From IMG/VR virus record IMGVR_UViG_651053023_000006: 19,487 nt of DNA. One strand, 5' to 3'. Positions 1,419 to 14,646 of this stretch are shown here, in pieces. This DNA comes from a virus. Taxonomy: Duplodnaviria; Heunggongvirae; Uroviricota; Caudoviricetes. Under the pieces are notes generated by a model. The model saw nothing but the letters and a program-made list of their open reading frames with translations, did not search any database and was not told where the DNA came from. Position 1 is the first letter of the stretch. Each line of letters opens with the position of its first letter. Made by a program: the position numbers and the translations under genes.

Positions 1419-3284
1419 TTAAAAATCAGCCTGACTCGGGATCAGTTTTTGCCAGATAGCTGAAACGTATTTTGCCTGGTAACGAGCGTCATCAAGTGCA
1501 TTATGGCGCTCACCTTCGAATGGAATAGCCGTTCTGGCATCGAAGTCTATGGCTTTCCCCAGCTCAACGATTGTGCGTACATCGCGATCGTTGTAGTAAC
1601 GCCACGGGCAGGGGATCCCCTGCCGTTCGTATGAACGGCGCAAAATCGTGTTGTCGAAGTTGGCTCCATTTCCCCAGACCTGAACAAAAAATTCACCGGA
1701 GTTTTCGTCGATAAATTCTCGCAATTGTAACAGTGCATCATCTAACGGGATTTCATCGGTCATAATGGCAGATTGCGCTTCGCGTGATTGCTTCAGCCAC
1801 CATTTAATGGTGTTCCGATCAATGACTCCGCCAGCAGTTTCCAGATCGATAGTCTTACTAAATTCCGGTCCCATATCTCCGGTTTGCGGATCGAAAAATA
1901 TTGCACCTATTGAGATAACCGGGGCATCAGGATTTTTTCCCATGGTTTCGAGGTCGATCATTAGATGGTCACACGTCCTGCTGGTGGATGTGATTTCGTG
2001 ATGACCGTTCATCTTAATTGAGTGATCTGCCGCCTCGCCAGTTTCATTATCGCTGGCGTGGTCCTGAGCGCTGCCAGCATTCTCCTTGTGTGGATGTTCA
2101 GCGCCTTCCATTTTCTCCGGATCGTTTTCCTGAACTTCAACCTGATTCTCTTCATCGAATGTTTCCTGGTATGTTGCGTCGCCCATCACCGCGCCACAAT
2201 CAGGGCAGTTGCCGCCACCGCTCTGACCGCAGGCGGTGCAGACTTTTTCCGCTTCCTGTTGCGCTACTGGCTCAGGTTGTTTTGTTTCCGGCTCGTTTTG
2301 TAACGCATTTGGGCTGTTTTGTTCCGCTTTCTGGTCGTTCTGTTCCGTTTCTTGCTGGTTCTGGTTCACAGAATCGCGGGTTTCAATCCCCTTCACCCAT
2401 TTCGGATCATTCGGGTCGCTAATCCCTGCAACAAATTCTCCGCGAGAGGCAGCAAGCAGTTCATTAGCGTCAGGCTGGCTGATATTGGCTGCCTGCATAA
2501 TTTTGTTTACTTCGTCAGCGGTAACTTTTACCGGCTCTGGTTGTGCGGTCGTGTCAGATGCACCAGTATTTTGTTGTGAGCCTGAGTATGTACCGTTTTT
2601 GCGGGCAAAATATTCTTCTTTCGTGATTTCAGTAGCCCCTGCAGCCAGCGCCTTATTCAGACCAGAAAGTTTGTTTGCACGACCATATTTTTCGCCATCC
2701 TTATCGGTGAAAAGGAAGTAGAACGGCCCCTCACGCTCTACAGATGGTTCAGTTTCCAGCGTGCTTTCATTTTTTTGGGTATCAGATACTTCAGTTTCCA
2801 CTGCATCAGTTTGTGCTGCTGACGGCTGGAGAATATCAGCAGCGTTCTGGTCTGTTTCTTCATCCTCAAACACGCCCTTTGTCGCCAGGTATTCAGTGAT
2901 GTATTTGTTCAGTGCTACGGGATCTTTGTGAATGTCGATCGGACGCTCACGGACAAGGCCAAAAATAGTCTGACGGTCGTAGCGGACGGCATCGGGTTGT
3001 TTGCGCATTGATGCGGAAATGCGCTTCCAGTCTTCGCGATCTTTGTCGATAACTTCATTGTTTCTGGCTAACCAGCAACGCGCGCCAGATTCGGTTTTAA
3101 ACGTTTTGCTTTTGGTATATGTCATCGCGGTGAACGTACCGTCCTGGTTGGGGAACACGCCGCATACCAGAGATTCGTTGTTGCCAAGATCGATAGTATC
3201 CATGCTGACCTCATTTCCCCTTAACGCCGGGGTAGCGGAACAAAAACCTGCTGCATAGTTATTAAAGTTGAACCCTGCCGTCAT
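1419..3284 (-). CDS. Phage exonuclease, C-terminal DnaQ-like DEDDh 3'-5' exonuclease domain with acidic N-terminal region and CxxC...CxxC zinc ribbon
   Basis: 621-aa ORF. C-terminal motifs read in the translation: IDLETMG (Exo I), NGANFD (Exo II), HNALDDA (Exo III). Zinc ribbon [16 protein letters not shown]. Start is ambiguous: ATG at 3282-3284, or ATG at 3201-3203 which has GAGG 7 nt upstream. Confidence 0.7.
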
Positions 3285-3425: not shown

Positions 3426-3494
3426 CGGGGCGTAACAAACACAACGCTTTTGATAAAGTCGTTGCGGTTGTTATGTTTCTATTGGTAGTGAAAG

Positions 3495-3773
3495 TTAGGG
3501 AAACTGGCGTCTTGCGTGGATCACGTTTACTACTTCAACGCTTGATGTTGTTACGCGGTATAGAATTATATAGTTAGGGTGGGCTACAATCTCACGCAAG
3601 CCAGGTACTCTGTCGCTTGGTGGGTATAAATACGGATGTTCGGATAACGGCAGCACACAACCCCTTAATCGCTGCCATAAGCGTTCAGCCGCATCTATGT
3701 CGAAACGAGCAATATAGCTAGTTATATCATCTAGGTCGGTATCTGCGCTTTCAAGCCATAACACGGGTAACAT
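3495..3773 (-). CDS. parE2: ParE-family type II toxin (ParE2-like)
   Basis: Track ORF trimmed to the internal ATG at 3771-3773, giving 92 aa. Typical ParE pattern (DLDDI...YRV...EVVNVIHARR). Start overlaps the stop of the upstream antitoxin (3775-3777). Confidence 0.75.
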   Translation of the reverse strand: MLPVLWLESADTDLDDITSYIARFDIDAAERLWQRLRGCVLPLSEHPYLYPPSDRVPGLREIVAHPNYIILYRVTTSSVEVVNVIHARRQFP

Positions 3774-3774
3774 T

Positions 3775-3966
3775 TTACTGCTTGCTCCGTTCCTTGCGCA
3801 TTTTAGCAAAGCGTTCTGCCATTCTGCGCTCAACTTCGTCATGGGGAATTGCTGGGCGCGGATCTGCAAGGCTCGTTGCTACTTTCGCACGCAGCCATTC
3901 GTTGTAACTGTTTTCTTGTTCAATGGTTTCAAATTCAGAAACCATTGGTGAAAGGGCTCTATTCAT
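3775..3966 (-). CDS. paaA2: Antitoxin of ParE toxin (PaaA2-like, 63 aa)
   Basis: ATG at 3964-3966 with AGGAGG-type RBS on the coding strand (GGAGGAAACATG). 63 aa (MNRALSPMVSEFETIEQENSYNEWLRAK...) immediately upstream of and coupled to the ParE gene. Size and sequence match my recollection of PaaA2 from the E. coli O157 paaR2-paaA2-parE2 module. Confidence 0.65.
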   Translation of the reverse strand: MNRALSPMVSEFETIEQENSYNEWLRAKVATSLADPRPAIPHDEVERRMAERFAKMRKERSKQ

Positions 3967-3986
3967 GTTTCCTCCGGTTTTATAAC

Positions 3987-4358
3987 TCAGGCGCGGCGGC
4001 ATTTTTGCGCCGCAATCCATCTCGCTATGAGATCTTCCATTGATTCTTTTTTCTGCTTTAACTCGCTGATTATCTGGCGTTGCTCATCCTCAGGGAAGGC
4101 TGAAAAAATCTGCAATAATTCCAGTTGATTAGACGTTAACCCTGCATGTGGTGGAGAAACTTCCGGTTGTTCTGCGTATTCCGCATCCAGATACCCTTCC
4201 GGCATCCCGTATGTTTGCTCTATTCTTCTGGCAGCCTTTTCTCCAAACGAGGCCCTCCCACTCATTAGTTGAGATAGGTAGCTCTTCTCTTTGGGTGGCA
4301 GAGTTTTATCTTTAAACCACTCCTTGAGACGTAAACGGCGAATTTCTTTTTTTTGCAT
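3987..4358 (-). CDS. paaR2: HTH transcriptional regulator in the prophage repressor (CI) position, PaaR2-like
   Basis: Track ORF starts at GTG 4421; I prefer ATG at 4356-4358 (123 aa). It lies divergent to the cro-like gene and is first in an operon with the antitoxin and toxin. There is no SD before the ATG, which would fit a leaderless mRNA. Confidence 0.6.
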   Translation of the reverse strand: MQKKEIRRLRLKEWFKDKTLPPKEKSYLSQLMSGRASFGEKAARRIEQTYGMPEGYLDAEYAEQPEVSPPHAGLTSNQLELLQIFSAFPEDEQRQIISELKQKKESMEDLIARWIAAQKCRRA

Positions 4359-4359
4359 G

Positions 4360-4455
4360 TGGTAATTATCTTTAGTAATCACTAAACAAGCAAATACTTG
4401 ACTTAATGGTTTATTAAACACTAAACTCGCAAAAAAACACTAAACCGAGGAAGGT
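4360..4455. promoter_or_regulatory. Divergent promoter/operator region (OR-like) between regulator and cro-like gene
   Basis: Three direct copies of CACTAAAC (4379-4386, 4419-4426, 4437-4444). Candidate rightward promoter TTGACT (4397-4402), 17-nt spacer, TAAACT. The cro-like gene has a strong RBS (GAGGAAGG). Confidence 0.4.
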
Positions 4456-4758
4456 ATGACATTAAAAGAGTTTATTAAATCATTGAGGGTTGGTGATGCT
4501 AAGAAATTCGCGGCCAGACTTGGTGTATCGCCATCTTACTTATCGCAAATGGCGTCTGGACGAGCAGCTATATCTCCAACCCGCGCCCTTATGATCGAAT
4601 CTGCGACGGAAGGCCAAGTAAGTAGGGCGGAGCTACGACCCCATGATTGGGAGCTTATTTGGCCTGAGTATGCGAGCGGCATTCGTTTGGGGCAAACACA
4701 TGTAGTTCATGCTGAAGGTGATTGTAGTGCATGCTTATCTGATGGAGTTGATTCATGA
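4456..4758 (+). CDS. Cro/YdaS-like HTH regulator
   Basis: 100-aa ORF, ATG at 4456, with an HTH segment (FAARLGVSPSYLSQMASGRAAISPTRAL). Divergent from the repressor-like gene. Its stop overlaps the next start as ATGA at 4755-4758. Confidence 0.7.
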   Translation: MTLKEFIKSLRVGDAKKFAARLGVSPSYLSQMASGRAAISPTRALMIESATEGQVSRAELRPHDWELIWPEYASGIRLGQTHVVHAEGDCSACLSDGVDS

Positions 4759-5179
4759 AAATCAAGCATGAACACATCCGCATGGCGATGAATGCCTGGG
4801 CGCGTCCTGATGGCGAAAAAGTTCCAGCAGCTGAAATAACCCGGGCTTATTTTGAGCTTGGTATGACGTTCCCAGAGCTATATGACGACAGGCATCCGGA
4901 AGCCCTGGCTCGCAATACTCAGAAAATTTTCCGCTGGGTGGAGAAAGACACCCCTGATGCGGTTAAAAAATTCAGGCGCTGTTACCGGCGATCGAAAAGG
5001 CAATGCCACCTCTGCTGGTGGCCCGAATGCGCAGCCACAGTTCAGCCTATTTTCGGGAGCTGGTGGAGATGCGGGAACGACTGGTGAGAGACGCTGATGA
5101 TTTTGTCGCAGTGGCGATCGCTGGTTTCAATCAGATGAATCGTGGTGGTCCGGCGGGAAATGCCGTGGTGATGCACTAA
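4755..5179 (+). pseudogene. cII/YdaT-like regulator gene interrupted by a frameshift at an A6 run (4965-4970)
   Basis: Frame 1 from ATG 4755 stops at 5087. The frame shifted by -1 after the A6 run reads cleanly to TAA at 5177-5179 (...IQALLPAIEKAMPPLLVARMRSHSSAYFRELVEMRERLVRDADDFVAVAIAGFNQMNRGGPAGNAVVMH). A single extra A would give one ORF of about 141 aa. Confidence 0.5.
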
Positions 5180-5202
5180 AAGCACGGTGTTCGGAGTTTT
5201 TT

Positions 5203-6150
5203 ATGAGCAGCAAGCTTCATGGTCTTGTCTGGGAAGGGTGTGCCTTCACCGGCATGATCTTATCCAGGGTGGCAGTTATGGCTCGCCTTGCAGATTACAG
5301 CAATGACGAAGGTGTGTCATGGCCTGCAGTGGAGACCATTCGTCGTCAGATTGGGGCAAAGAGTGAATCAACGGTTAAAGCTGCGATAGCAGAACTGGAA
5401 AAGAACGGCTGGCTGACGAAGGAGGAACGTAAGGTCGGTGGGCGTAATGAAAGCAATATCTACCGTCTTAATGTGGAAAAACTCGAAGCAGCAGCAGCGG
5501 CAGCGCGTGAGGCATATAAACCGAAAAGAAAAATTAGCCAGGCAAAAAATGACCCGTCAAATATTGACCCCTCAACGGTTGACCCGTCAAATTTTGATGG
5601 ATCAACCGTTGATAAAAAACAGCCGGTTAGGGGGGCGATGGTTGGCCCCGATCCGTCAGTATTAAAACCTGATCCGTCAGATAAAAGATCTTTTCGTCCG
5701 GACGCTTCGCAACCGGACCCGCAGACGGCTGAACAGGATTTTTTAACCCGACACCCTGACGCGGTTGTGTTCAGTGCGAAAAAACGCCAGTGGGGCAGCC
5801 AGGAGGATTTAGCGTGTGCGCAGTGGATCTGGGGACGAATCGTGAGTCTTTACGAGCAGGCTGCCAGCGATGATGGCGAAATCATGCGACCGAAAGAACC
5901 CAACTGGACTGCATGGGCCAATGATGTGCGCACAATGCGGATGCTGGATGGCAGAACTCACAGACAAATTTGCGAAATGTTTGGTCGGGTACAGCGGGAT
6001 CCATTCTGGGTAAAAAACGTCATGAGCCCGTCAAAGCTTCGCGAAAAATGGGATGAGCTGGTTATTCGTCTGGGGCGTTCGCCTGTACAGCGTTGCGTGA
6101 ATCACATTTCTGAACCGGACACCGAAATTCCGCCGGGATTCAGGGGGTAA
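5203..6150 (+). CDS. Replication initiator, lambda O-like, with iteron-encoded linker
   Basis: 315-aa ORF with GGAG RBS. N-terminal winged-helix-like segment. The central peptide repeats (DPSNIDPSTVDPSNFDGSTVD...PDPSVLKPDPSD) are encoded by DNA iterons. It is followed by a DnaC-like loader gene. Confidence 0.7.
   Translation: MSSKLHGLVWEGCAFTGMILSRVAVMARLADYSNDEGVSWPAVETIRRQIGAKSESTVKAAIAELEKNGWLTKEERKVGGRNESNIYRLNVEKLEAAAAAAREAYKPKRKISQAKNDPSNIDPSTVDPSNFDGSTVDKKQPVRGAMVGPDPSVLKPDPSDKRSFRPDASQPDPQTAEQDFLTRHPDAVVFSAKKRQWGSQEDLACAQWIWGRIVSLYEQAASDDGEIMRPKEPNWTAWANDVRTMRMLDGRTHRQICEMFGRVQRDPFWVKNVMSPSKLREKWDELVIRLGRSPVQRCVNHISEPDTEIPPGFRG
5548..5690. repeat. Iteron array inside the O-like gene (candidate ori)
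   Basis: Repeated TGACCCGTCAA-type units (ATGACCCGTCAAAT, TTGACCCCTCAAC, TTGACCCGTCAAAT, GGATCAACCGTTGAT, CGATCCGTCAGTA, TGATCCGTCAGAT), each with partial dyad symmetry, followed by an A/T-richer stretch. Confidence 0.5.
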
Positions 6151-6156
6151 CGAAGC

Positions 6157-6903
6157 ATGAAAAATATTGCGACAGGCGGTGTTCTTGAACGCATCCGTAA
6201 GCTGGCTCCGCAGCATGTAACCGCGCCATACCGAACAGTGGACGAGTGGCGCGAGTGGCAACTTGCAGAAGGCCAGAAGCGTTGCGAGGAGATCAACCGC
6301 CAGAATCGTCAGTTGCGGGTGGAAAAAATTCTGAATCGCTCCGGCATCCAGCCGTTGCACCGCAAGTGCTCGTTTGCGAATTACCAGGTGCAGAATGACG
6401 GCCAGCGATACGCGTTGAGCCAGGCGAAATCCATCGCCGATGAACTGATGACCGGATGCACAAATTTCGCATTCAGCGGAAAACCTGGTACCGGGAAAAA
6501 CCACTTAGCGGCGGCTATCGGGAATCGCCTGCTGAAAGATGGCCAGACAGTGATTGTGGTTACCGTGGCTGATGTCATGAGTGCTCTACACGCCAGCTAT
6601 GACGACGGGCAATCAGGCGAAAAATTTTTGCGGGAACTGTGCGAAGTGGATCTGCTGGTTCTTGATGAAATTGGTATTCAGCGCGAGACGAAAAACGAGC
6701 AGGTGGTACTGCACCAGATTGTTGATCGCCGGACAGCGTCGATGCGCAGCGTGGGGATGCTGACAAACCTGAACTATGAGGCCATGAAAACATTGCTCGG
6801 CGAGCGGATTATGGATCGCATGACCATGAACGGCGGGCGCTGGGTGAATTTTAACTGGGAGAGCTGGCGCCCGAATGTTGGTCAGCCAGGTATTGAGAAG
6901 TAA
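6157..6903 (+). CDS. DnaC-like helicase loader (phage P / YdaV-like AAA+ ATPase)
   Basis: 248 aa. Walker [14 protein letters not shown] and Walker [19 protein letters not shown]. Immediately downstream of the O-like gene. Confidence 0.85.
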
Positions 6904-6925
6904 TTTTTACCGGGAGGAAATTTTA

Positions 6926-7696
6926 ATGGAGACCGTTTTTGACGCACTGAAAGCGATGGGAAAAGCCACGTCGGTAGAGCTGGCTGCGCGACTTGATATC
7001 AGTCGTGAAGAAGTACTGAACGAGCTGTGGGAACTGAAAAAGGCTGGCTTCGTTGATAAAAGCGTATACACCTGGCGTGTGGCTGGCGAAGGTGAATCAG
7101 GGGTAGCCGAAGAGCAGCCAGCACAATCTGAAGTACAGGATGTGCTAACCAGGGAGGTCGAACGAAAAGTTACCGCTGACATGATGATTGAGTTTATCGG
7201 TCAGGAGGGAGCTAAAACGTGTGAGGAACTGGCGGGTAAGTTCGGTGTCAGCACTCGCAAGGTTGCTTCCACGCTGGCGGTAGTAACCGCAACGGGGCGG
7301 CTGGCACGCGTAAACCAGAACGGTAAATTTCGCTACTGCATACCGGGCGATAATTTACCAGCAGAGCCGAAAGCTGCATTGGTAGCGGAAACTGATGGTA
7401 AAGCCTTTCCTCAGCCAGCAAGTGTTGCGTTACCAGTACAGGAAGCTGCAACACAGGAAGATATTAAAACAGAAACTGTGGCGGACATTGTGCAGTCGCT
7501 GCCATCGTTCACTGAAACACGAGCTGATGGCCTGATTTTACCATCGCTGCATATGGCAAACCGCGAACTGCGCCGGGCGAAAAGTCATGCCCAGAAGTGG
7601 GAGCGAGTTTGCGCCGCGCTGCGGGAGCTGAACAAGCACCGGGATATTGTCCGACAGATTGTCGATTCCTCCAGTCGTATTGTGCCGGAAAAGTGA
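6926..7696 (+). CDS. Hypothetical phage protein with two winged-helix-like segments
   Basis: Track ORF trimmed to ATG 6926, which has a GGGAGGA RBS. Two similar segments ([30 protein letters not shown] and [30 protein letters not shown]). Confidence 0.55.
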
Positions 7697-7712
7697 TTCC
7701 TGGGGAGGGCTT

Positions 7713-8168
7713 ATGGCAAAAGTATTTACACAGGAAGAGCGAGAAAAAATTAAAGGGCAGGTTGTTGAGCTGGTACGCCAGAGCGGGCGCGAGACGTTAC
7801 GGCAACTGGAAGCGAAAACTGGTGCGACAAGATATCTGATGAGTGTTATCGCCAGAGAGCTGGTTGCCAGTGGCGATGTATATAACTCTGGCTACGGGTT
7901 ATTCCCGTCTGAACAGGCTCGTAAGGACTGGCAAAACGCCCGCAAAAAACTCTCAAGGGCAAATCTGAAGAAACCATCTGTGGTTGATCCGGACCTTATC
8001 TGGTCATTACCAGACGGAGAAATGCGTCGCTACGATAGGCGCCTGAATATAATCTGTCGCGAGTGCCGGAAGAGCGAAGCTATGCAGCGTGTACTGGCAT
8101 TTTACCAGAATGGTTTTCGAGAGACATTCGGTGAACAGGTTGTGCATGAGGGAAATCATGGCGCTTAG
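7713..8168 (+). CDS. Hypothetical phage protein (N-terminal HTH-like segment)
   Basis: Track ORF trimmed to ATG 7713, which has a GGGGAGGG RBS. 151 aa. No catalytic motif recognised. Confidence 0.55.
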   Translation: MAKVFTQEEREKIKGQVVELVRQSGRETLRQLEAKTGATRYLMSVIARELVASGDVYNSGYGLFPSEQARKDWQNARKKLSRANLKKPSVVDPDLIWSLPDGEMRRYDRRLNIICRECRKSEAMQRVLAFYQNGFRETFGEQVVHEGNHGA

Positions 8169-8278
8169 GCAATTGTGTAGACGCGTTGACGGTCGAAAGC
8201 ATAGGAGGGTTGATTGATCGTTCTAGTTATGCTGTCAGAGCGAAAGCGCAGGAACTGGGTATCAATAGGATGTTAAGA

Positions 8279-8287
8279 GGGGGGGGG
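8279..8287. repeat. G9 homopolymer tract separating two ORF fragments
   Basis: Nine consecutive G read directly in the sequence. The upstream fragment ends ...INRMLRGGGL and stops at TAA 8291-8293. The downstream frame encodes YNQSKKHPQSDIELVRKLHQCGVPRRDIAVKREMSLGMINQYVYFDRRAHEV and stops at 8445-8447. Confidence 0.9.
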
Positions 8288-8595
8288 TTATAACCAATCA
8301 AAAAAACATCCGCAAAGCGATATTGAGCTAGTGCGGAAGCTTCATCAGTGTGGAGTTCCCCGCCGTGATATCGCTGTAAAACGCGAAATGTCCTTGGGCA
8401 TGATTAATCAGTACGTTTATTTCGACAGGAGAGCGCATGAAGTTTGACATCTAGACAACTGGGGGAGCGCTGAAAACGTTCTTAATTGATGTTGGATTCG
8501 CTTTACATACTGAACTGTTTGGCTGAAAGACACGGTAGTATCACCAATCAAGGTGCTTTTGATAAACGCTTGTGTGTTTGTTTTTTAATCCATTG

Positions 8596-8624
8596 TTGAC
8601 AACTAGGTTAGTTTTCCATATCAT
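8596..8624 (+). promoter_or_regulatory. Candidate sigma70 promoter for the ParA-like gene
   Basis: TTGACA (8596-8601), 17-nt spacer, TATCAT (8619-8624), about 30 nt upstream of ATG 8655. Confidence 0.5.
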
Positions 8625-8654
8625 CAATAAAAGTGTAAAACTAATGGTGGCGAT

Positions 8655-9701
8655 ATGACTAGTGAATCAAATGTTAATGCTCTGATAGAGCGTCAATTCG
8701 AAGTTGCTGACGGTAATGTAAGAAGTCTTAATTTGCCGAAATATGATAAATATACAGTATGTAATTTACGGGGAGGCATTGGTAAGACATCTTTAACTTT
8801 TAATCTGTCATATTTGGCGGATAACGCATTAATCGTGGATACGTGCCCGCAAGGAAATTTATCATATTTTTTTGACAATAATTATGCATCTTCGTCTAGC
8901 ACAACTGCAAATGACCTCTTAATGCCTTATTTTGTTCCAGGGCTTGGATTTGCAACGCGTGCTGCAAAGCTAGTATCATCAACTAATGCTTGGTTTGCGG
9001 GCAAGAATAACTATTTTATTCAATCTGATAGTCAACTTTATCTTCTACCTACGCAAATGGCGAATGCTCTGGCTCAAGCCAGAACAATTTCTGGGGCTAC
9101 TCAGCAGGTTGTTATTGATACAATTCTTTTTTCTCTGAAGAAAGAAATAGCCAGAGAAATGGTTGAAACTGGTACTACAAAAGCGTTAATTGATACATCA
9201 CCTTTTTTCTCTGGAGCGACGCATTTATCTTGGCATGCAACAGATGCTTTAATAGTTCCAGTGAGGACAGATCAGCAATCGATTAATTCATTAAGATTAC
9301 TTATTGATACTCTGACTAAACCAACATCAGAATTTAGAAAGATAATGCCGTCTGATGGCCATACACCAAAAATTCAGATGGTGGTTATTACCCATTGCGG
9401 ATGGTCAACAGTGGCAGGAGCAAGGAATAAACCAAATCAACAGACAAAAATGTACATCGAAGCTGTAAGAGAGGTAATTCGACAAAATATTAGTAATTTT
9501 ACAACAGATGATCCTAATAATCACATTGTGATTCTTGATGATTTTCTGGGTAGTGGCAGAATGTCAAGTGCTAAGTCTAAACCATTAGAGTTGTTAAATC
9601 CAGGAGATGCAATGACTGTGAATAGAGTTAGGACATCCGTGAATTTATCTGTTAACAAAATAAAAAATGAATTAAAGTTCATTCACAACTCCATATGGTA
9701 A
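8655..9701 (+). CDS. ParA/MinD-superfamily P-loop ATPase with atypical deviant Walker A (Arg replaces the signature Lys)
   Basis: 348 aa. Motifs: YTVCNLRGGIGKTSLTFNLSYL (deviant Walker A, R for K), LIVDTCPQGNLS (compare ParA LLIDLDPQGN), ALIDTSPFFSG ... DALIVPVRTDQQSINSL (Walker B region). About 30-aa N-terminal and about 60-aa C-terminal extensions. Region is visibly AT-rich. Confidence 0.8.
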   Translation: MTSESNVNALIERQFEVADGNVRSLNLPKYDKYTVCNLRGGIGKTSLTFNLSYLADNALIVDTCPQGNLSYFFDNNYASSSSTTANDLLMPYFVPGLGFATRAAKLVSSTNAWFAGKNNYFIQSDSQLYLLPTQMANALAQARTISGATQQVVIDTILFSLKKEIAREMVETGTTKALIDTSPFFSGATHLSWHATDALIVPVRTDQQSINSLRLLIDTLTKPTSEFRKIMPSDGHTPKIQMVVITHCGWSTVAGARNKPNQQTKMYIEAVREVIRQNISNFTTDDPNNHIVILDDFLGSGRMSSAKSKPLELLNPGDAMTVNRVRTSVNLSVNKIKNELKFIHNSIW

Positions 9702-9858
9702 ATGACATTTTATTTGAATAATCTGGATTGATAATTATTGTTACATTAATTGTTATTAATTCTAAATAATCCTATCGTTCTTCAGGATGAGATAATTTAT
9801 ATTTATTTGTGTTGTGATTTTTTGAATTTATTTAGGTTTATGAACTGTTTTAGATGAA

Positions 9859-9978
9859 ATGAATCATGAATACGAAATTGTTGCGGTACTGATAACGAGG
9901 AAAGACCTCTGCGAGGTACGAATCCGAACCGGCCAGACGGAGGTCGCTGTCTTCACAGCTTACGAACCTGAGGAGTAA
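9859..9978 (+). pseudogene. hok/gef-family type I toxin remnant, 5'-truncated
   Basis: 39-aa frame MNHEYEIVAVLITRKDLCEVRIRTGQTEVAVFTAYEPEE. The C-terminal 28 residues match the conserved Hok/Gef/RelF tail (LTRKxLCEx[RH]xRxGxxEVAxFxAYE). The N-terminal transmembrane helix is missing and no hydrophobic stretch is encoded upstream in any frame. GC-rich hairpins and a terminator follow, as in hok mRNA 3' regions. Confidence 0.6.
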
Positions 9979-10046
9979 GAGACCAGGCGAGGGAGAAATC
10001 CCTCGCCACCTCTGATGTGTCAGGCATCCTCAACGCACCCGCACTT

Positions 10047-10069
10047 AACCCGCTTCGGCGGGTTTTTTA
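10047..10069 (+). terminator. Rho-independent terminator (hok-remnant 3' end)
   Basis: ACCCGC-TTCG-GCGGGT hairpin (10048-10063) followed by T6. A strong GGCGAGGGA-GAAA-TCCCTCGCC hairpin lies upstream at 9986-10007. Confidence 0.7.
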
Positions 10070-10116
10070 TTGGTTGACAAAATTATGAATATGCACCAAT
10101 ATCTTGGTTGACAAAA
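10070..10116 (+). promoter_or_regulatory. Candidate promoter/operator with two direct TTGGTTGACAAAA repeats
   Basis: TTGGTTGACAAAA at 10070-10082 and 10104-10116. Each contains TTGACA. Located between the terminator and the start of the downstream two-gene operon. Confidence 0.4.
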
Positions 10117-10151
10117 GTCGTTTTTTGCACGGATTAGGCGGAGAAGTGTCT

Positions 10152-10745
10152 ATGCAGAACCATCCATTCCCTTGGGAGTTCTTTCCTGAGTTAACAGAGG
10201 AGCGTTTAACCATTATAGCTGAGGAGTTGCTCAGGATACAGGATATTACTCATGAGTTATTGTCATCGCCCTATGATGATAATTACACTCGTGGTGGTTG
10301 TACATTTGGGCGTCAGCGGCAGGCGTTGCTACAAATGTGCGTACGAAAGACATATGACTGGTTAAGACTACTTAATCCTGGCATGGATCTTACGTTTTCA
10401 ATTGGGAATGTCCCTATTCGTTTCTTTACTGATGACGCAGATAACCCCAAGAAACGCGGTTTTTTCAAAAGAAATGATGCTGATCGACTCTTTGAGTCAG
10501 AGGAGACTACTCCAACTATGCATCGCTTTGTGGTTGAAAAGCCTGAATTTGAAGGCGAGGGTGGTAGAGTCATTTTTAATGGCTATAACGTGTTTGGTGA
10601 GATCGTGTCAACTTGGACATATGGTGCGGACCGTGTTGTTATGCTGAACTCTGTCGATGATGTACCTCCAGCACCGGTACCTATCGAACTAGAACCTATC
10701 AGTGCGTCTAAGACTGAGAAGGAAAAGAAACAAAATAGCAAATAG
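10152..10745 (+). CDS. Hypothetical protein (197 aa), first gene of a two-gene operon
   Basis: Track ORF starts at TTG 10104; I prefer ATG 10152 with GGAG about 9 nt upstream. AT-rich codon usage. No family motif recognised. Stop TAG at 10743-10745 is 10 nt before the next start. Confidence 0.65.
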   Translation: MQNHPFPWEFFPELTEERLTIIAEELLRIQDITHELLSSPYDDNYTRGGCTFGRQRQALLQMCVRKTYDWLRLLNPGMDLTFSIGNVPIRFFTDDADNPKKRGFFKRNDADRLFESEETTPTMHRFVVEKPEFEGEGGRVIFNGYNVFGEIVSTWTYGADRVVMLNSVDDVPPAPVPIELEPISASKTEKEKKQNSK

Positions 10746-10755
10746 TGGGTGAAAT

Positions 10756-11877
10756 GTGTTTAACGGTACTAATTTAAGACTTGCTCGTCTGTATCACGAG
10801 CTATCTCTGGAGCAGGTTGCTGAGAAGGTTGAAAAAACACGCCAGTATGTACAGCGACTGGAGTCTGGTTCAGCTACTCCATCCCCAGAGCTTATAAATA
10901 AATTAGCCGAGGTTTTGCGCGTGAAGCCCGCCTTTTTCGAAGGGCAGGAACATTCTCCTGTTAATGAAGAGATTGTACATTTTCGTAAACGCGCCTCGAC
11001 AAGGATGTCAACGAAGCTATCAACACTCGCTAAGGCTGAGTTTTATCGTCGTTTTATTGATGTATTTGAAGATAACCTTAATTTGTCACCTGTTCGATTT
11101 CCTGAATTTCGTGTCCATACACAAGAAGATATCGAGCGAGCGGCAGAAAAATGTCGTATTGAGTGGGGCTTAGGCTTTGGCCCAATTGAAAATATGACTC
11201 GCCTTGCCGAGAAACTTGGGGCGTTTGTTACTTCATTTGACTCCGTTTCGGATGAAGTAGATGCACTGTCTGTTCCTCTACGAAGGCCTTTTATTGTTCG
11301 AAATACAGCTAAAAATTCACCTTGTAGGCAACGCTTTGATATTGCTCATGAGGTTGCCCATTTGATTCTTCATGAAGGAATTTCTACTGGGGATAGATTA
11401 ACTGAATCCCAGGCAAACCGTTTTGCCTCTGCTCTGTTGCTTCCCAGAACGTCGATGGCGAAATATTTTCCAAGACCTGTGGGGGGGAGGATAAATTGGC
11501 AGGGACTAAGCCAATTTAAGTTGACATGGAAAGTAAGTAAGGCTGCCATTGTTTACAGGGCTCATCAATTAGGACTTTTGACTGATGAGCAGTACAGAAC
11601 TGCATTTATGGGGTTGAAACGGAAAGGGGAAGCTATTGATGAAAAAGAAGATTATCTAATCCCTCATGAGCGTCCTGAGTTATTCCGTCGGGCTTTATCG
11701 TTTTTATTTGAAGAGTTAGGATACGACCCACAGCGTATAGCTGATGAAATGGATATAGAAGTGGACATTTTTTATGAGTTAGTAGGAGATGATCTTCCTG
11801 CGGTTCATGAACTGCCAGGAAGTGGTGATGTTGTTTCACTACAATCTTACCGAACTCTTAGAGGCAAAATTCACTAG
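10756..11877 (+). CDS. XRE-family HTH fused to ImmA/IrrE-type zinc metallopeptidase (COG2856-like)
   Basis: GTG start at 10756. N-terminal HTH (LRLARLYHELSLEQVAEKVEKTRQYVQRLESG...ELINKLAEVL). Central HEXXH motif (FDIAHEVAHLILHE) in the arrangement typical of ImmA/IrrE peptidases. 373 aa. Confidence 0.75.
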   Translation: MFNGTNLRLARLYHELSLEQVAEKVEKTRQYVQRLESGSATPSPELINKLAEVLRVKPAFFEGQEHSPVNEEIVHFRKRASTRMSTKLSTLAKAEFYRRFIDVFEDNLNLSPVRFPEFRVHTQEDIERAAEKCRIEWGLGFGPIENMTRLAEKLGAFVTSFDSVSDEVDALSVPLRRPFIVRNTAKNSPCRQRFDIAHEVAHLILHEGISTGDRLTESQANRFASALLLPRTSMAKYFPRPVGGRINWQGLSQFKLTWKVSKAAIVYRAHQLGLLTDEQYRTAFMGLKRKGEAIDEKEDYLIPHERPELFRRALSFLFEELGYDPQRIADEMDIEVDIFYELVGDDLPAVHELPGSGDVVSLQSYRTLRGKIH

Positions 11878-11881
11878 GCAT

Positions 11882-11904
11882 AACCCGCTTCGGCGGGTTT
11901 TTTG
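11882..11904 (+). terminator. Rho-independent terminator, identical hairpin to 10047-10069
   Basis: ACCCGC-TTCG-GCGGGT followed by T6, starting 5 nt after the stop at 11875-11877. Confidence 0.7.
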
Positions 11905-11978
11905 TTTTACGTATTCTGGTTTACAATCTACAGGCTAGCCTGAACAACTGGCACCTGCTGCGCCAGCAGAGAAAACCG

Positions 11979-12251
11979 ATGGCGCACAATACCAAACATC
12001 ACAATTCTGATACCGACCTTGCCAGCTGGCACGGGCGGCGTTCTCATACATTCAAATATGACTGGTACCAGCATGCCCCATGCACTGAAGAACAGGCCGA
12101 ATGGCTGATTCAGAACTACCGCAGGCGTGGGTACGACTTTCAGAAAGACCTCAGCCCTGACTTCCGACACTGGATAATTTCTGTCAGGCTCCCTTATTCC
12201 GAACGCCCACCGCGTCCGTCCCGCACATTCCAGCAACGCATCTGGAGGTAA
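11979..12251 (+). CDS. Hypothetical small protein (Rem-like by position)
   Basis: 90-aa ORF, ATG at 11979. Its stop TAA (12249-12251) sits next to the GGAGG RBS and GTG start of the downstream DUF968 gene. Gene order resembles rem-ydfU-Q in Qin-type prophages. Confidence 0.45.
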   Translation: MAHNTKHHNSDTDLASWHGRRSHTFKYDWYQHAPCTEEQAEWLIQNYRRRGYDFQKDLSPDFRHWIISVRLPYSERPPRPSRTFQQRIWR

Positions 12252-12252
12252 C

Positions 12253-13308
12253 GTGCGGGTATTACTTCGACCTGTTCTGGTGCCGGAACTTGGGGTGGTT
12301 ATCGTTAAGCCAGGTCGTGAATCCATGCAGGTATTCCATAACGGCAGAGTGCTGGTTGAACCGGAGCCAAAAAGCATGCGCGGTCTGCCGTCCGGGGTCG
12401 TTCCTGCCGTTCGCCAGCCGCTGGCGGAAGACAAATCTCTGCTGCCATTTTTCAGCGATGAGCGGGTGATTCGTGCTGCCGGCGGCGCTGGTGCACTGTC
12501 TGACTGGCTCCTGCGTCATGTTAAATCCTGCCAGTGGCCACACGGCGATTATCATCACAGCGAAACCGTTATTCACCGTTATGGTACCGGCGCAATGGTG
12601 TTGTGCTGGCACTGCGACAACCAGCTGCGTGACCAGACATCCGAATCACTCGAGCAACTTGCTCATCAAAACCTGTCAGCATGGATGATTGACGTCATAC
12701 ACCATGCAATGAATGGCACGCAGGAGCGGGAATTATCGCTGGCTGAATTATCTTGGTGGGCAACCATAAATAACGTAGCGGACGCACTACCGGAGACGGT
12801 ATTACGTCGTTCGCTGGGATTGCGCGCGGAAAAAATTCGCTCAGTATACCGCGAGAGCGACATCGTGCCGGGAGAGCAGACCGCCACCAGCATACTGAAG
12901 CAGCGCACAAAAAATCTTGCGCCGCTGCCTCACGCCCACCAGCAAAACCCGCCACAGGAAAAGACAGTGGTCAGCATTGCCGTTGATCCGGAGTCACCGG
13001 CTCAGTATCTCCAGCGCCAGAAACCACAACGGGAAGAGATGCCTGTATACACGCGCTGGGTAAAAACGCAGAAATGCATGACGTGCGGTAATCAGGCAGA
13101 TGATCCGCATCACATCATTGGTCATGGACTGGGAGGGATGGGAACAAAGGCTGACGATTTGTTTGTTATTCCATTGTGCCGTAAATGTCATAACGAACTG
13201 CACACCGGGGTAAAAGATTTTGAAGAAAAACACGGCAGCCAGCTGTTGTTGCTGATTCGTTTTTTAATGCACGCGAGAAATTCGGGTGTCCTGAAGTGGA
13301 AAGCATAA
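12253..13308 (+). CDS. DUF968 (YdfU-like) prophage protein with C-terminal HNH/zinc-finger-like motif
   Basis: 351 aa, GTG start with GGAGG upstream. C-terminal CMTCGN...HHIIGHG...CRKCHNELH cysteine/histidine cluster. Stop TAA is adjacent to the rusA ATG. Confidence 0.65.
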   Translation: MRVLLRPVLVPELGVVIVKPGRESMQVFHNGRVLVEPEPKSMRGLPSGVVPAVRQPLAEDKSLLPFFSDERVIRAAGGAGALSDWLLRHVKSCQWPHGDYHHSETVIHRYGTGAMVLCWHCDNQLRDQTSESLEQLAHQNLSAWMIDVIHHAMNGTQERELSLAELSWWATINNVADALPETVLRRSLGLRAEKIRSVYRESDIVPGEQTATSILKQRTKNLAPLPHAHQQNPPQEKTVVSIAVDPESPAQYLQRQKPQREEMPVYTRWVKTQKCMTCGNQADDPHHIIGHGLGGMGTKADDLFVIPLCRKCHNELHTGVKDFEEKHGSQLLLLIRFLMHARNSGVLKWKA

Positions 13309-13674
13309 ATGACCGAACGCATAGAATTTGTTTTGCCTTACCCGCCAACGGTGAACACCTACTGGCGACGTCGTGGCAGCACATATTTTGTATCAAAAGC
13401 CGGTGAGCGTTATCGCCGTGATGTGGCGCTAATTGTTCGCCAGCAGCGGCTGAAATTAAACCTGTCCGGACGGCTGGCGATAAAGGTGATTGCAGAGCCA
13501 CCGGATAAACGTCGTCGTGACCTGGACAATATCCTGAAAGCACCACTGGATGCGCTGACGCATGCCGGACTACTCATAGACGACGAGCAGCTTGATGAAA
13601 TCAATATTGTGCGCGGTCAGCTCGTTCCTGGTGGGCGGCTGGGGATAAAAATCACAGAATTGGAGTGCGCATGA
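13309..13674 (+). CDS. rusA: RusA-family Holliday junction resolvase
   Basis: 121 aa. PYPPTVNTYW and RRRDLDN motifs match the RusA pattern (PWPPSNNRYY, RRRDLDN). Stop overlaps the Q-like start as ATGA. Confidence 0.85.
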   Translation: MTERIEFVLPYPPTVNTYWRRRGSTYFVSKAGERYRRDVALIVRQQRLKLNLSGRLAIKVIAEPPDKRRRDLDNILKAPLDALTHAGLLIDDEQLDEINIVRGQLVPGGRLGIKITELECA

Positions 13675-14360
13675 ATAACCAGTATTTACAGTTTGTGCGC
13701 GAGCAGCTCATTATCGCCACCGCTGATTTGAGTGGGGCAACAAAAGGTCAGCTTGAAGCCTGGCAGGAGAATGCCATGTTTGATACAGGGCGTTACAGGC
13801 GTAAAAAAATCCGGTACCGCGATGAAGTGACTGGAAAAATGATAACGCGGGATAATCCACCAATCCCGGGAAAACAATCACTGGCGAAAGGCTCATCAAT
13901 TGCCCTGGTCAGCCCGGTTGAGTTTTCGACATCATCATGGCGGCGGGCTGTGCTGTCTCTTGAAGAGCATCATAAAGCCTGGTTGTTGTGGTGTTACGGC
14001 GGAAACATTTGCTGGGAGCATCAGATCGCGATAACACAGTGGGCGTGGAACGAATTTAATACTCAATCCGGTACCAGAAAAATTGCAGGGAAAACGCAGG
14101 AACGCCTGAAAAAATTAATCTGGCTGGCGGCGCAGGCAGTAAAAGCAGAACTTTTTGGTGGGGAAGGTTATGAATACCAGGAGCTGGCATTACTGGCGGG
14201 AGTGACAACTAAAAACTGGTCCAAAACATTTACTCGTCACTGGGTTGCAATGAAACACATTTTTTACCGACTGGATAGTGGGGCTTTATTGTTTGTAATG
14301 AGAACGCGTTCAAAACAAAAGGCGGCATTTTCAAAGCAAAGTGTTGCAAAAGTAGATTGA
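13671..14360 (+). CDS. Q-like late antiterminator (candidate)
   Basis: 229-aa ORF (ATG 13671, GGAG RBS) in the canonical position after rusA and before a promoter, tRNA and terminator. The family call rests mainly on position and size. Confidence 0.5.
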   Translation: MNNQYLQFVREQLIIATADLSGATKGQLEAWQENAMFDTGRYRRKKIRYRDEVTGKMITRDNPPIPGKQSLAKGSSIALVSPVEFSTSSWRRAVLSLEEHHKAWLLWCYGGNICWEHQIAITQWAWNEFNTQSGTRKIAGKTQERLKKLIWLAAQAVKAELFGGEGYEYQELALLAGVTTKNWSKTFTRHWVAMKHIFYRLDSGALLFVMRTRSKQKAAFSKQSVAKVD

Positions 14361-14570: not shown

Positions 14571-14646
14571 GGCCCTTTAGCTCAGTGGTGAGAGCGAGCG
14601 ACTCATAATCGCTTGGTCGTTGGTTCAAACCCAACAGGGGCCACCA
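14571..14646 (+). tRNA. tRNA with CAU anticodon, Ile2 (lysidine) type by similarity to ileX; tRNA-Met not formally excluded
   Basis: 76 nt including CCA. Acceptor stem GGCCCTT/AGGGGCC. Anticodon stem AGCGA/TCGCT with loop CTCATAA (U33, CAT, A37). T arm GTTGG-TTCAAAC-CCAAC. Closely resembles E. coli tRNA-Ile2 as I remember it. Confidence 0.9.

Follow-up and report, generated by a model that had tools for sequence, protein, structure and literature searches.

Accessory cassettes of phages (morons) and the defence hotspots in which cargo is exchanged, such as the nin region of lambda or the hotspots of P2/P4, are self-contained promoter–gene–terminator units of deviant base composition. Rousset et al. 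reportedly described the P2/P4 hotspots of defence genes in 2022. Here, a region of this kind was analyzed in a 19,487-nt (19.5 kb) stretch of DNA from a Caudoviricetes virus (IMG/VR record IMGVR_UViG_651053023_000006), referred to below as the window. An earlier reading of the letters without database searches (the sequence-only reading) had proposed one AT-rich cargo island at 8460–11910, composed of two novel modules which were recently acquired into a known variable slot. Our analysis favors, with a probability of roughly 80%, a composite of two independently acquired accessory cassettes (morons), which flank the gene hokD in two adjacent sub-slots of a Rac/Qin-type lambdoid prophage. One carries a solitary gene for a ParA-like ATPase and the other the toxin–antitoxin (TA) system RosmerTA.

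RosmerTA was defined by Millman et al. (2022, bioRxiv 10.1101/2022.05.11.491447) as an anti-phage TA system, and a ΔrmrA mutant of the system studied there could not be transformed. According to Ernits et al. (2023, PMC10440598) the antitoxin RmrA is a protein with a helix-turn-helix (HTH) domain and an ImmA protease domain, which is paired with diverse RmrT toxins; a phage-encoded example was validated, RmrT of Gordonia phage Kita was found to depolarize membranes, and other RosmerTA systems were also reported on prophages. For the ParA-like gene a precedent is ParI, an orphan ParA from a genomic island of P. putida KT2440, which, as PMC8544851 summarizes Miyakoshi et al. (2012), destabilizes IncP-7 plasmids via partition. 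The backbone order of the window is that of the K-12 prophage Qin (relBE-hokD-rem-ydfU), in which the position upstream of ydfU indeed carries relBE and hokD, as the sequence-only reading had stated.

Two inserts on either side of a hokD remnant

The coordinates of all features are outlined in Table 1. A sliding profile of the guanine-plus-cytosine (GC) content, together with values for single segments and for third codon positions of single genes (GC3), confirmed the AT-rich shift where the sequence-only reading had placed it: GC is 0.403 for 8460–11910 versus 0.518 on the replication side (4456–8168) and 0.513 on the ydfU-rusA-Q side (11906–14360). The drop proceeds in two tiers, with 0.348 at 8448–9883 and 0.429 at 10071–11881, and GC3 amounts to 0.264 for the ParA-like gene, 0.399 for rmrT and 0.324 for rmrA, most flanking genes ranging from 0.47 to 0.63. 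For comparison, control segments from elsewhere in the window gave a mean GC of 0.503 (standard deviation, SD, 0.031; minimum 0.446; n = 264) at the length of insert 1 and of 0.502 (SD 0.029; minimum 0.454; n = 248) at the length of insert 2. Insert 1 lies at about −5.0 SD and insert 2 at about −2.5 SD, each lower than all of its controls, so that the shift in composition is significant for both.

Between the inserts, 187 bp with a GC of 0.561 (9884–10070) were identified as a piece of the prophage backbone, comprising the 3′ half of hokD and its terminator. Evidently, the AT-rich region is discontinuous and consists of two inserts, and Pfam, RefSeq and alignment all place a truncated hokD inside it. 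RefSeq annotates this remnant as a pseudogene missing its N-terminus. Homology to hokD starts at about 9884, around 20–25 codons into the gene, and the mok leader, the hok start and the sok region upstream are all replaced, while the 3′ half, the 3′ stem of the mRNA and the terminator are almost identical to those of intact hokD loci (hokD/sok, i.e. relF, of Qin). The Rfam model of sok (RF01794) scored 118.6 bits in a locus which combines intact hokD with RosmerTA (L002) and found no match in the window at 9600–10150 or 8000–12400. Of the parts of a hok/sok type I TA system, the remnant lacks a full-length Hok (about 50 amino acids, aa, with an N-terminal transmembrane segment), and the window lacks both the sok antisense RNA and the mok leader. 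The toxicity of Hok requires its N-terminal membrane segment; the remnant should therefore be inert, and the antitoxin RNA is gone, too. To judge from these alignments, the hok/sok system of the window is dead by deletion of sok, mok and the first codons of hokD.

Complete E. coli genomes (5,426) were surveyed for the distribution of the inserts. Common among them is the flanking backbone, DUF977 ... hokD ... orf90-ydfU-rusA-Q: 4,862 genomes have parts of 7600–12700, but only 13 have 80% or more of it. Exactly these 13 genomes (0.24%) carry the ParA module (8460–9870), which is 100% identical and chromosomal in all of them. The RosmerTA cassette was found in 22 genomes (0.4%) with an identity of at least 99.6%. 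Such rare cargo does not hold a conserved core position in many unrelated phages. All 13 ParA-bearing genomes are among the 22 with RosmerTA, leaving nine with RosmerTA only. In eight of these nine, RosmerTA is immediately preceded by an intact hokD, with the same spacing throughout, the ninth locus being cut by the record origin, and the eight genomes represent at least three prophage backbones, which differ in Q type and in the cargo between DUF977 and hokD. From these RosmerTA-only genomes with intact hokD we infer that RosmerTA entered first and the ParA module later, in one sub-lineage. The hokD-RosmerTA-orf90 block has moved among prophages through recombination.

A single contiguous foreign island gained in one event, as was implicit in the sequence-only reading, would agree with the adjacency of the two modules, with their common AT shift and with the presence of RosmerTA in 13 of 13 ParA-bearing genomes. 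This model is effectively refuted by the GC-rich backbone remnant between the modules and by the nine genomes with RosmerTA and without ParA, hokD being intact in the eight assessable ones; furthermore, the modules differ in GC and have very different taxonomic ranges. In place of one island, two independent inserts occupy two sub-slots flanking hokD and were acquired at different times.

In the composite model, RosmerTA with its own promoter region, rmrT, rmrA and a second hokD-type terminator entered at the T-run of the hokD terminator, i.e. where K-12 Qin has rem and most prophages have nothing. Later and in one sub-lineage only, the interval from DUF977 to the middle of hokD was replaced by a small HTH open reading frame (ORF) and the promoter-bearing ParA-like gene. 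The two insertions, their order, the loss of hok/sok and the boundaries of the cassettes are shown by comparison of loci at the sequence level.

Several observations weigh against the composite model. According to their strain names, the 13 ParA-bearing genomes are largely related enterotoxigenic E. coli (ETEC) isolates and may therefore stem from one or very few events (one or two). The state of the DUF977-to-hokD slot before insertion was not found among the E. coli genomes for this exact lineage, and the sequence past 8447 had no match in the other E. coli genomes. With the exception of the terminator repeat described below, no recombinase, insertion sequence (IS) element or target-site duplication was detected for either insertion. 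A generic promoter scan yielded 8 sites versus 9.7 expected in shuffled sequence, hence no excess; the only persuasive promoter candidate is the 11/12 consensus match of the ParA-like gene, at which the homology to another genus begins. Activity of the promoters, expression in the lysogen, toxicity and action against phages are predictions from the sequence. Finally, of 87 loci with the ParA-like gene, 84 show a lower GC in the gene than around it, the mean difference being −0.10, and the GC of the gene follows that of the host (r = 0.71). Low GC thus appears to be a trait of the family, and AT-richness cannot date this insertion.

The same 84 loci could be taken as a sign that low GC reflects an intrinsic composition of the family, or an old resident gene, rather than recent acquisition. 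We regard this as improbable, since the two modules are confined to 0.24% and 0.4% of the genomes at complete and near-complete identity, respectively, while the shared backbone is only about 87–91% identical between prophages and the cassettes are located on different backbones. The claim of recent acquisition, which had been derived from AT-richness, can thus be retained on grounds of rarity and near-identity, with low GC being a weak clock for the ParA-like gene. Likewise, the variable slot of the sequence-only reading holds, and the novelty of its second module does not.

Table 1 Features of the two cassettes and of the adjoining backbone (coordinates of the window).
Feature	Position	Strand	Basis
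DUF977/Ren-like gene, left backbone anchor of slot 1	7713–8168	+	Pfam DUF977 4.8e-27; phrog_142 (Ren-like) 5.4e-46; DUF977 in the annotation of ETEC4090
Small HTH-type ORF, broken by poly-G (G9, about 8278–8286)	8186–8447	+	Some 900 genomes have a small 'DNA-binding protein' gene with about 70–77% nucleotide identity
Insert 1, ParA-like moron module, GC 0.348	8448–9883	+	13/5,426 genomes; right edge set where hokD homology begins
Sigma-70-like promoter of the ParA-like gene, TTGACA-17-TATCAT	8596–8624	+	11/12 consensus match; start of Enterobacter homology
Solitary ParA-fold ATPase, 348 aa	8655–9701	+	Pfam AAA_31 8.4e-10; phrog_164 2.8e-30
5′-truncated hokD remnant, 39-aa ORF (true homology from about 9884)	9859–9978	+	Pfam HOK_GEF, profile positions 14–42 of 42 only
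3′ stem of hokD mRNA and intrinsic terminator, copy 1	9987–10070 (hairpin 10047–10064 plus T-run)	+	Terminator scan, repeat; identical in intact hokD loci
Insert 2, RosmerTA cassette including 3′ terminator copy, GC 0.429	10069–11903	+	22/5,426 genomes; junctions versus empty and rem-bearing sites
RosmerTA promoter region, two direct TTGGTTGACAAAA copies (10070, 10104)	10070–10116	+	Repeat scan; −35 and putative RmrA operator
rmrT, toxin, 197 aa, no Pfam domain	10152–10745	+	PADLOC RmrT PDLC03929, 5.5e-93, 308 bits, positions 1–197 of 198
rmrA, antitoxin, N-terminal XRE HTH and M78/ImmA-IrrE Zn-peptidase	10756–11877	+	PADLOC RmrA PDLC03943, 4.3e-201, 666 bits, positions 1–368 of 370
Intrinsic terminator, copy 2, hairpin identical to hokD terminator	11882–11905	+	Terminator scan, repeat; runs into the native backbone of empty sites
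orf90 (90 aa), right backbone anchor directly upstream of ydfU	11979–12251	+	phrog_1212 1.1e-36; 71% identity to unnamed 92-aa K-12 ORF upstream of ydfU

The RosmerTA cassette and its terminators

The full-length PADLOC matches of both RmrT and RmrA identify the second module as the known RosmerTA system. As in the described systems, it consists of two genes with the toxin first, its RmrA combines an XRE HTH with an M78 Zn-peptidase, and it is carried by a prophage; nothing essential differs. The genes rmrT and rmrA lie on the same strand with a gap of 10 nt, a shared promoter region upstream and a terminator downstream, as expected for an operon. In RmrA, Pfam HTH_3 covers residues 7–61 (1.5e-12) and Peptidase_M78 residues 151–269 (8.4e-17), the latter containing the HExxH motif as HEVAH (residues 198–202, nt 11347–11361). 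A match to the NCBIfam spr1629-family repressor/antitoxin (4e-51) remained under the model cutoff.

In contrast to RmrT of phage Kita, which depolarizes membranes, the RmrT subtype of the window has no domain annotation and a predicted fold that is weakly PD-(D/E)xK-like. This subtype is limited to Enterobacterales and Aeromonas (80 clusters). Its AlphaFold model (pLDDT 80.9) combines a sheet of six strands with two long helices, the tail being disordered, and the residues D94, D95 and E129 are invariant. These features hint that RmrT of this subtype may be a PD-(D/E)xK-like nuclease.

The two TTGGTTGACAAAA repeats in front of rmrT are a putative operator of RmrA; a similar promoter architecture was found by alignment upstream of the divergent RosmerTA of phage Tritos (see below). 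In the lysogen both cassettes would be transcribed from their own sigma-70 promoters, and the ParA transcript would probably end at the retained hokD terminator. RmrA would keep RmrT in check and probably autoregulate its synthesis via the repeated TTGGTTGACAAAA, until phage infection frees RmrT and leads to abortive infection, as described for the RosmerTA family.

The junctions of the cassette were derived from an alignment of the window with the intact hokD+RosmerTA locus, an empty site and K-12 Qin. On the left, the cassette directly follows the T-run of the hokD terminator; on the right, it closes with a further copy of this terminator, which is followed by the native downstream sequence in the same way as the single terminator of empty sites. 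Both copies form a 26-nt direct repeat at a distance of 1835 bp. Two copies were present in five of five window-type RosmerTA loci examined, while empty, rem or Tritos loci have one. In one locus (L004) the right-hand copy is joined to a different variant of the downstream backbone, which argues that cassette and terminator travel together. This distinguishes the window from lambda nin and the P2/P4 hotspots, with which the inserts otherwise share their self-contained organization, deviant composition and exchanged cargo: a second copy of the hokD terminator marks the cassette border and moves with the cassette. Terminator duplication as a general feature of cassettes at this site was considered and rejected, as the Tritos RosmerTA variant and the rem loci have a single copy.

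An Rfam scan of the AT-rich island revealed no RNA family above threshold; isrK-like and rsmX-like matches fell under the gathering score. Their first copy covers the 3′ stem of hokD and its terminator, and a second, weaker copy ends on terminator copy 2. The isrK-like match (31 bits, gathering score 50) is located at 9987–10068 and occurs likewise at 4913–4994 of L002, i.e. in truncated and intact loci. It probably reflects the shared stem-plus-terminator shape.

A run of seven G within rmrA (G7, 11475–11481) was one base shorter in strain ETEC4090, where RmrA is split into two annotated ORFs, and strain 2011EL-1370-2 probably shares the shorter run (1805-bp match, matching annotation). If real, the shorter run would truncate the antitoxin while rmrT is retained; an assembly error is just as possible.

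The solitary ParA-like ATPase

The protein encoded by insert 1 shares its fold and its Walker A and B-like motifs with the ATPases ParA, Soj, MinD and McdA. However, it is only 14–19% identical to them, has about 100 extra residues and carries an arginine in place of the signature lysine within a Walker A motif (NLRGGIGKTSL) which is invariant in the family. The AlphaFold2 model (pLDDT 79.6, pTM 0.84) was compared with the PDB via Foldseek, yielding Soj (2bek), ParA2 (7npe) and McdA (6non) as top matches with a TM score of about 0.7 over the target and nothing beyond this generic fold. A PADLOC search gave nothing significant, only marginal, spurious matches to PRTase and ShosT (E at least 1e-4), and searches of NCBIfam and PDB sequences returned P-loop-level matches only.

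The family is nearly isolated by sequence and uniform in length (342–350 aa). Identities amount to 96% in the Enterobacter cloacae complex, 73% in Yersinia and 51–67% in organisms as different as Desulfovibrio, Mariprofundales, Magnetococcales, Burkholderia, Lachnospiraceae, Selenomonas, Clostridium, Paenibacillus, Bacteroidetes, Pseudanabaena, Thermoguttaceae, Synergistaceae, Leptospira and Caldilinea, among others, thereby spanning Proteobacteria, Firmicutes, Bacteroidetes, Cyanobacteria, Planctomycetes, Spirochaetes and further phyla. Relatives are rare: 96 were found among 185,579 species representatives (about 0.05%), and among 1.84 billion representatives at 50% identity 179 matched at E ≤ 1e-3 and 30 at E ≤ 1e-30. 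In essence the family is one full-length cluster with a modest set of full-length relatives at about 29–45% identity.

At the DNA level the homology to Enterobacter extends exactly from the −35 element of the promoter (8596) to the stop codon (9702), which indicates that the transferable unit is promoter plus ORF. The ORF is followed by an AT-rich spacer of about 160 bp. With 83.6% nucleotide versus 96% amino acid identity over this unit, the comparison argues strongly for purifying selection. By blastn no conserved non-coding flank was found beyond the promoter, and no tandem or inverted repeat array adjoins the gene in the window. In order to identify a partner gene all ORFs within 3 kb in 77 loci were clustered; no neighbor recurred, the largest family covering 6 loci. 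Compared with a ParABS system, fold and deviant Walker A are present, while an adjacent parB, a centromere-like site and a typical residence on plasmids or near chromosomal origins are missing. The gene is, by contrast, an orphan parA without partner on an integrated accessory element. In this description it resembles ParI, likewise a ParB-less ParA-family ATPase of an integrated mobile element, but the present family has 342–350 aa, Arg for the signature Lys and a range of many phyla with little divergence; no locus of P. putida KT2440 was among the 80 loci returned.

The genomic contexts are diverse. The gene adjoins ParE/PaaA2, HicA-like or CbtA/CbeA genes, is the outermost gene on one side of an Enterobacter integrative element (TrbL, NikA) just after proA, lies near an integrase (for example in Massilia) or beside a resolvase with Tn3 and IS elements, and is placed between coupling protein and relaxase in a gut conjugative element. 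In the P2-like Ralstonia phage RsoM1USA a homologue with 34.5% identity (3959–5005) is located between attP and the genome end, beside a DUF3800 gene. In Burkholderia and Desulfovibrio the gene was found amid small TA-type genes, and no element backbone was visible. Among 72,556 plasmids only five carry the gene, and these also encode a classical 214-aa ParA and a small downstream ORF, as on the small Aeromonas plasmids L024 and L025.

As a tentative reading, which we regard as possible and favor over the other named ones, the solitary ATPase may, by analogy with ParI, be a competition or defence factor directed against other mobile elements or phages, e.g. an undescribed single-gene system which poisons partition or DNA positioning or mounts an ATP-dependent abortive response. 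This reading is suggested by the missing partner in 77 loci, the mobility of promoter plus ORF, the occurrence in slots that elsewhere hold TA or defence candidates, and a cross-phylum identity of 51–67% despite a presence in about 0.05% of species representatives. Conservation this high across phyla suggests that the protein interacts with a universal partner, for instance DNA or a conserved host machine, and is not accounted for by a lineage-specific ParB. In a literature search on ParA-like anti-phage systems nothing directly relevant was found except for the ParI precedent.

Integrative and conjugative elements of several families encode ParA/Soj-like maintenance proteins. It is therefore conceivable, though rather unlikely, that the ATPase serves partition or maintenance of its carrier, for instance by stabilizing an excised or plasmid-like form, which would fit the ParA/Soj/McdA fold, the position at the edge of the Enterobacter element and the proximity to integrases in Massilia and RsoM1USA. 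Yet the 77 loci have no ParB-like partner or conserved neighbor, and no DNA is conserved outside promoter and ORF, hence no shared centromere site. The five plasmids each have their own classical ParA with its small ORF, and around the copies of Burkholderia and Desulfovibrio no element backbone is visible. That the gene is a decaying passenger without function in E. coli appears very unlikely: it has no known function, and both the HTH ORF and hokD next to it are damaged, by a frameshift and by truncation, respectively, but its ORF is intact in 13 of 13 genomes, purifying selection is strong, the catalytic motifs are invariant across phyla and the promoter is conserved. The remaining weight lies with functions other than competition or defence, maintenance and passenger.

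Variable slots and prophage backbone

Comparison of the related prophages revealed two exchange points, slot 1 from DUF977 to hokD and slot 2 from the hokD terminator to orf90. In both of them unrelated cargo occupies the same backbone position of related prophages, as is typical of a moron hotspot. The cassettes of the window have the properties of morons as well, with a predicted promoter (8596–8624), terminators (10047 and 11882) and a GC of 0.348 and 0.429 versus 0.51–0.52.

Slot 1 holds RelBE in K-12 Qin and elsewhere ParDE with an HNH gene, DUF5677, QueH, an alpha/beta hydrolase, an S-adenosylmethionine methyltransferase, a Paa adhesin or small DUF551/DUF4014 gene sets. In phage Tritos (OV696610, L027) it carries a 444-aa protein matching the PADLOC candidate PDC-S15 (1.2e-98), and in L029 a DUF7380 protein matching candidate PDC-S39 (8.4e-103; 930–2717). 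In at least six RosmerTA-bearing prophages, several of them ETEC by name, slot 1 is occupied by a two-gene operon of 310 aa (WP_000556394) and 184 aa (minus strand, 2839–4322 in L002; the same genes in L111–L115), which has neither a PADLOC match nor an annotation and represents candidate cargo. Slot 2 is mostly empty (match span about 535–541 bp); otherwise it is extended by about 300 bp, by rem (about 375 bp), by about 670 bp or by RosmerTA. Phage Tritos carries a different RosmerTA after hokD, with an RmrA of 32% identity and an RmrT without detectable similarity to that of the window (Tritos occupants at 970–2304 and 3428–5184). The variety of TA and defence-candidate occupants supports the proposal of the sequence-only reading that this is a common site for such cargo. 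No description of the DUF977/hokD/orf90 double slot was found in the searchable literature (terms: hokD, prophage, hotspot, defense).

The annotated genes confirm that the AT-shifted accessory DNA lies between a replication module (O-like, DnaC-like, DUF1627, DUF977/Ren-like) and orf90, which is followed by ydfU (DUF968), rusA and Q. orf90 had been taken for rem; it does not align with K-12 Rem and is a homologue of the unnamed gene preceding ydfU. In K-12 Qin rem is found at the position which RosmerTA holds in the window, and the window has no rem; relBE adjoins hokD in Qin, whereas in the window a relBE-type pair sits in the immunity region instead. Transfer of the ETEC4090 annotation places this pair, a RelE/ParE-family toxin with a RelB antitoxin, on the minus strand at about 3495–3966, beside the repressor region. 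About 2.35 kb of the ETEC4090 prophage (ydfD-dicB region) are missing from the window at about 3055–3063, and beyond a tRNA (anticodon CAT) at 14571–14646 the two sequences, which are otherwise collinear, diverge completely.

On the left, similarity to most E. coli prophages stops near 8108. The small HTH ORF which follows DUF977 spans two frames in the window; with one G fewer (G8) it would be an intact ORF of 87 aa, and ETEC4090 has G7. It could be a pseudogene, a case of phase variation or a homopolymer sequencing error. Arrival of this ORF and the ParA-like gene as one unit was considered and is unsupported, because the Enterobacter homology starts only at 8596 and the GC differs (0.466 versus 0.348).

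As an island the region is ordinary: a lambdoid prophage harbors morons in a variable slot, and one of these morons is already catalogued as a defence system. It nevertheless provides a clean natural example of a cassette that was gained at the cost of a resident TA system, and of a terminator hairpin which moves with a cassette as its border. The series DUF977/hokD/orf90 defines two precisely bounded exchange points, at which thousands of E. coli prophages could be searched for new cargo; several of the known occupants match PADLOC candidates, and others lack an annotation. Next to RosmerTA, which is known, and hok/sok, which is dead, the orphan ATPase is the sole uncharacterized part. Its family is compact, spans phyla and is always solitary, which makes the ParA-like gene a tractable single-gene candidate for defence or competition between mobile elements.

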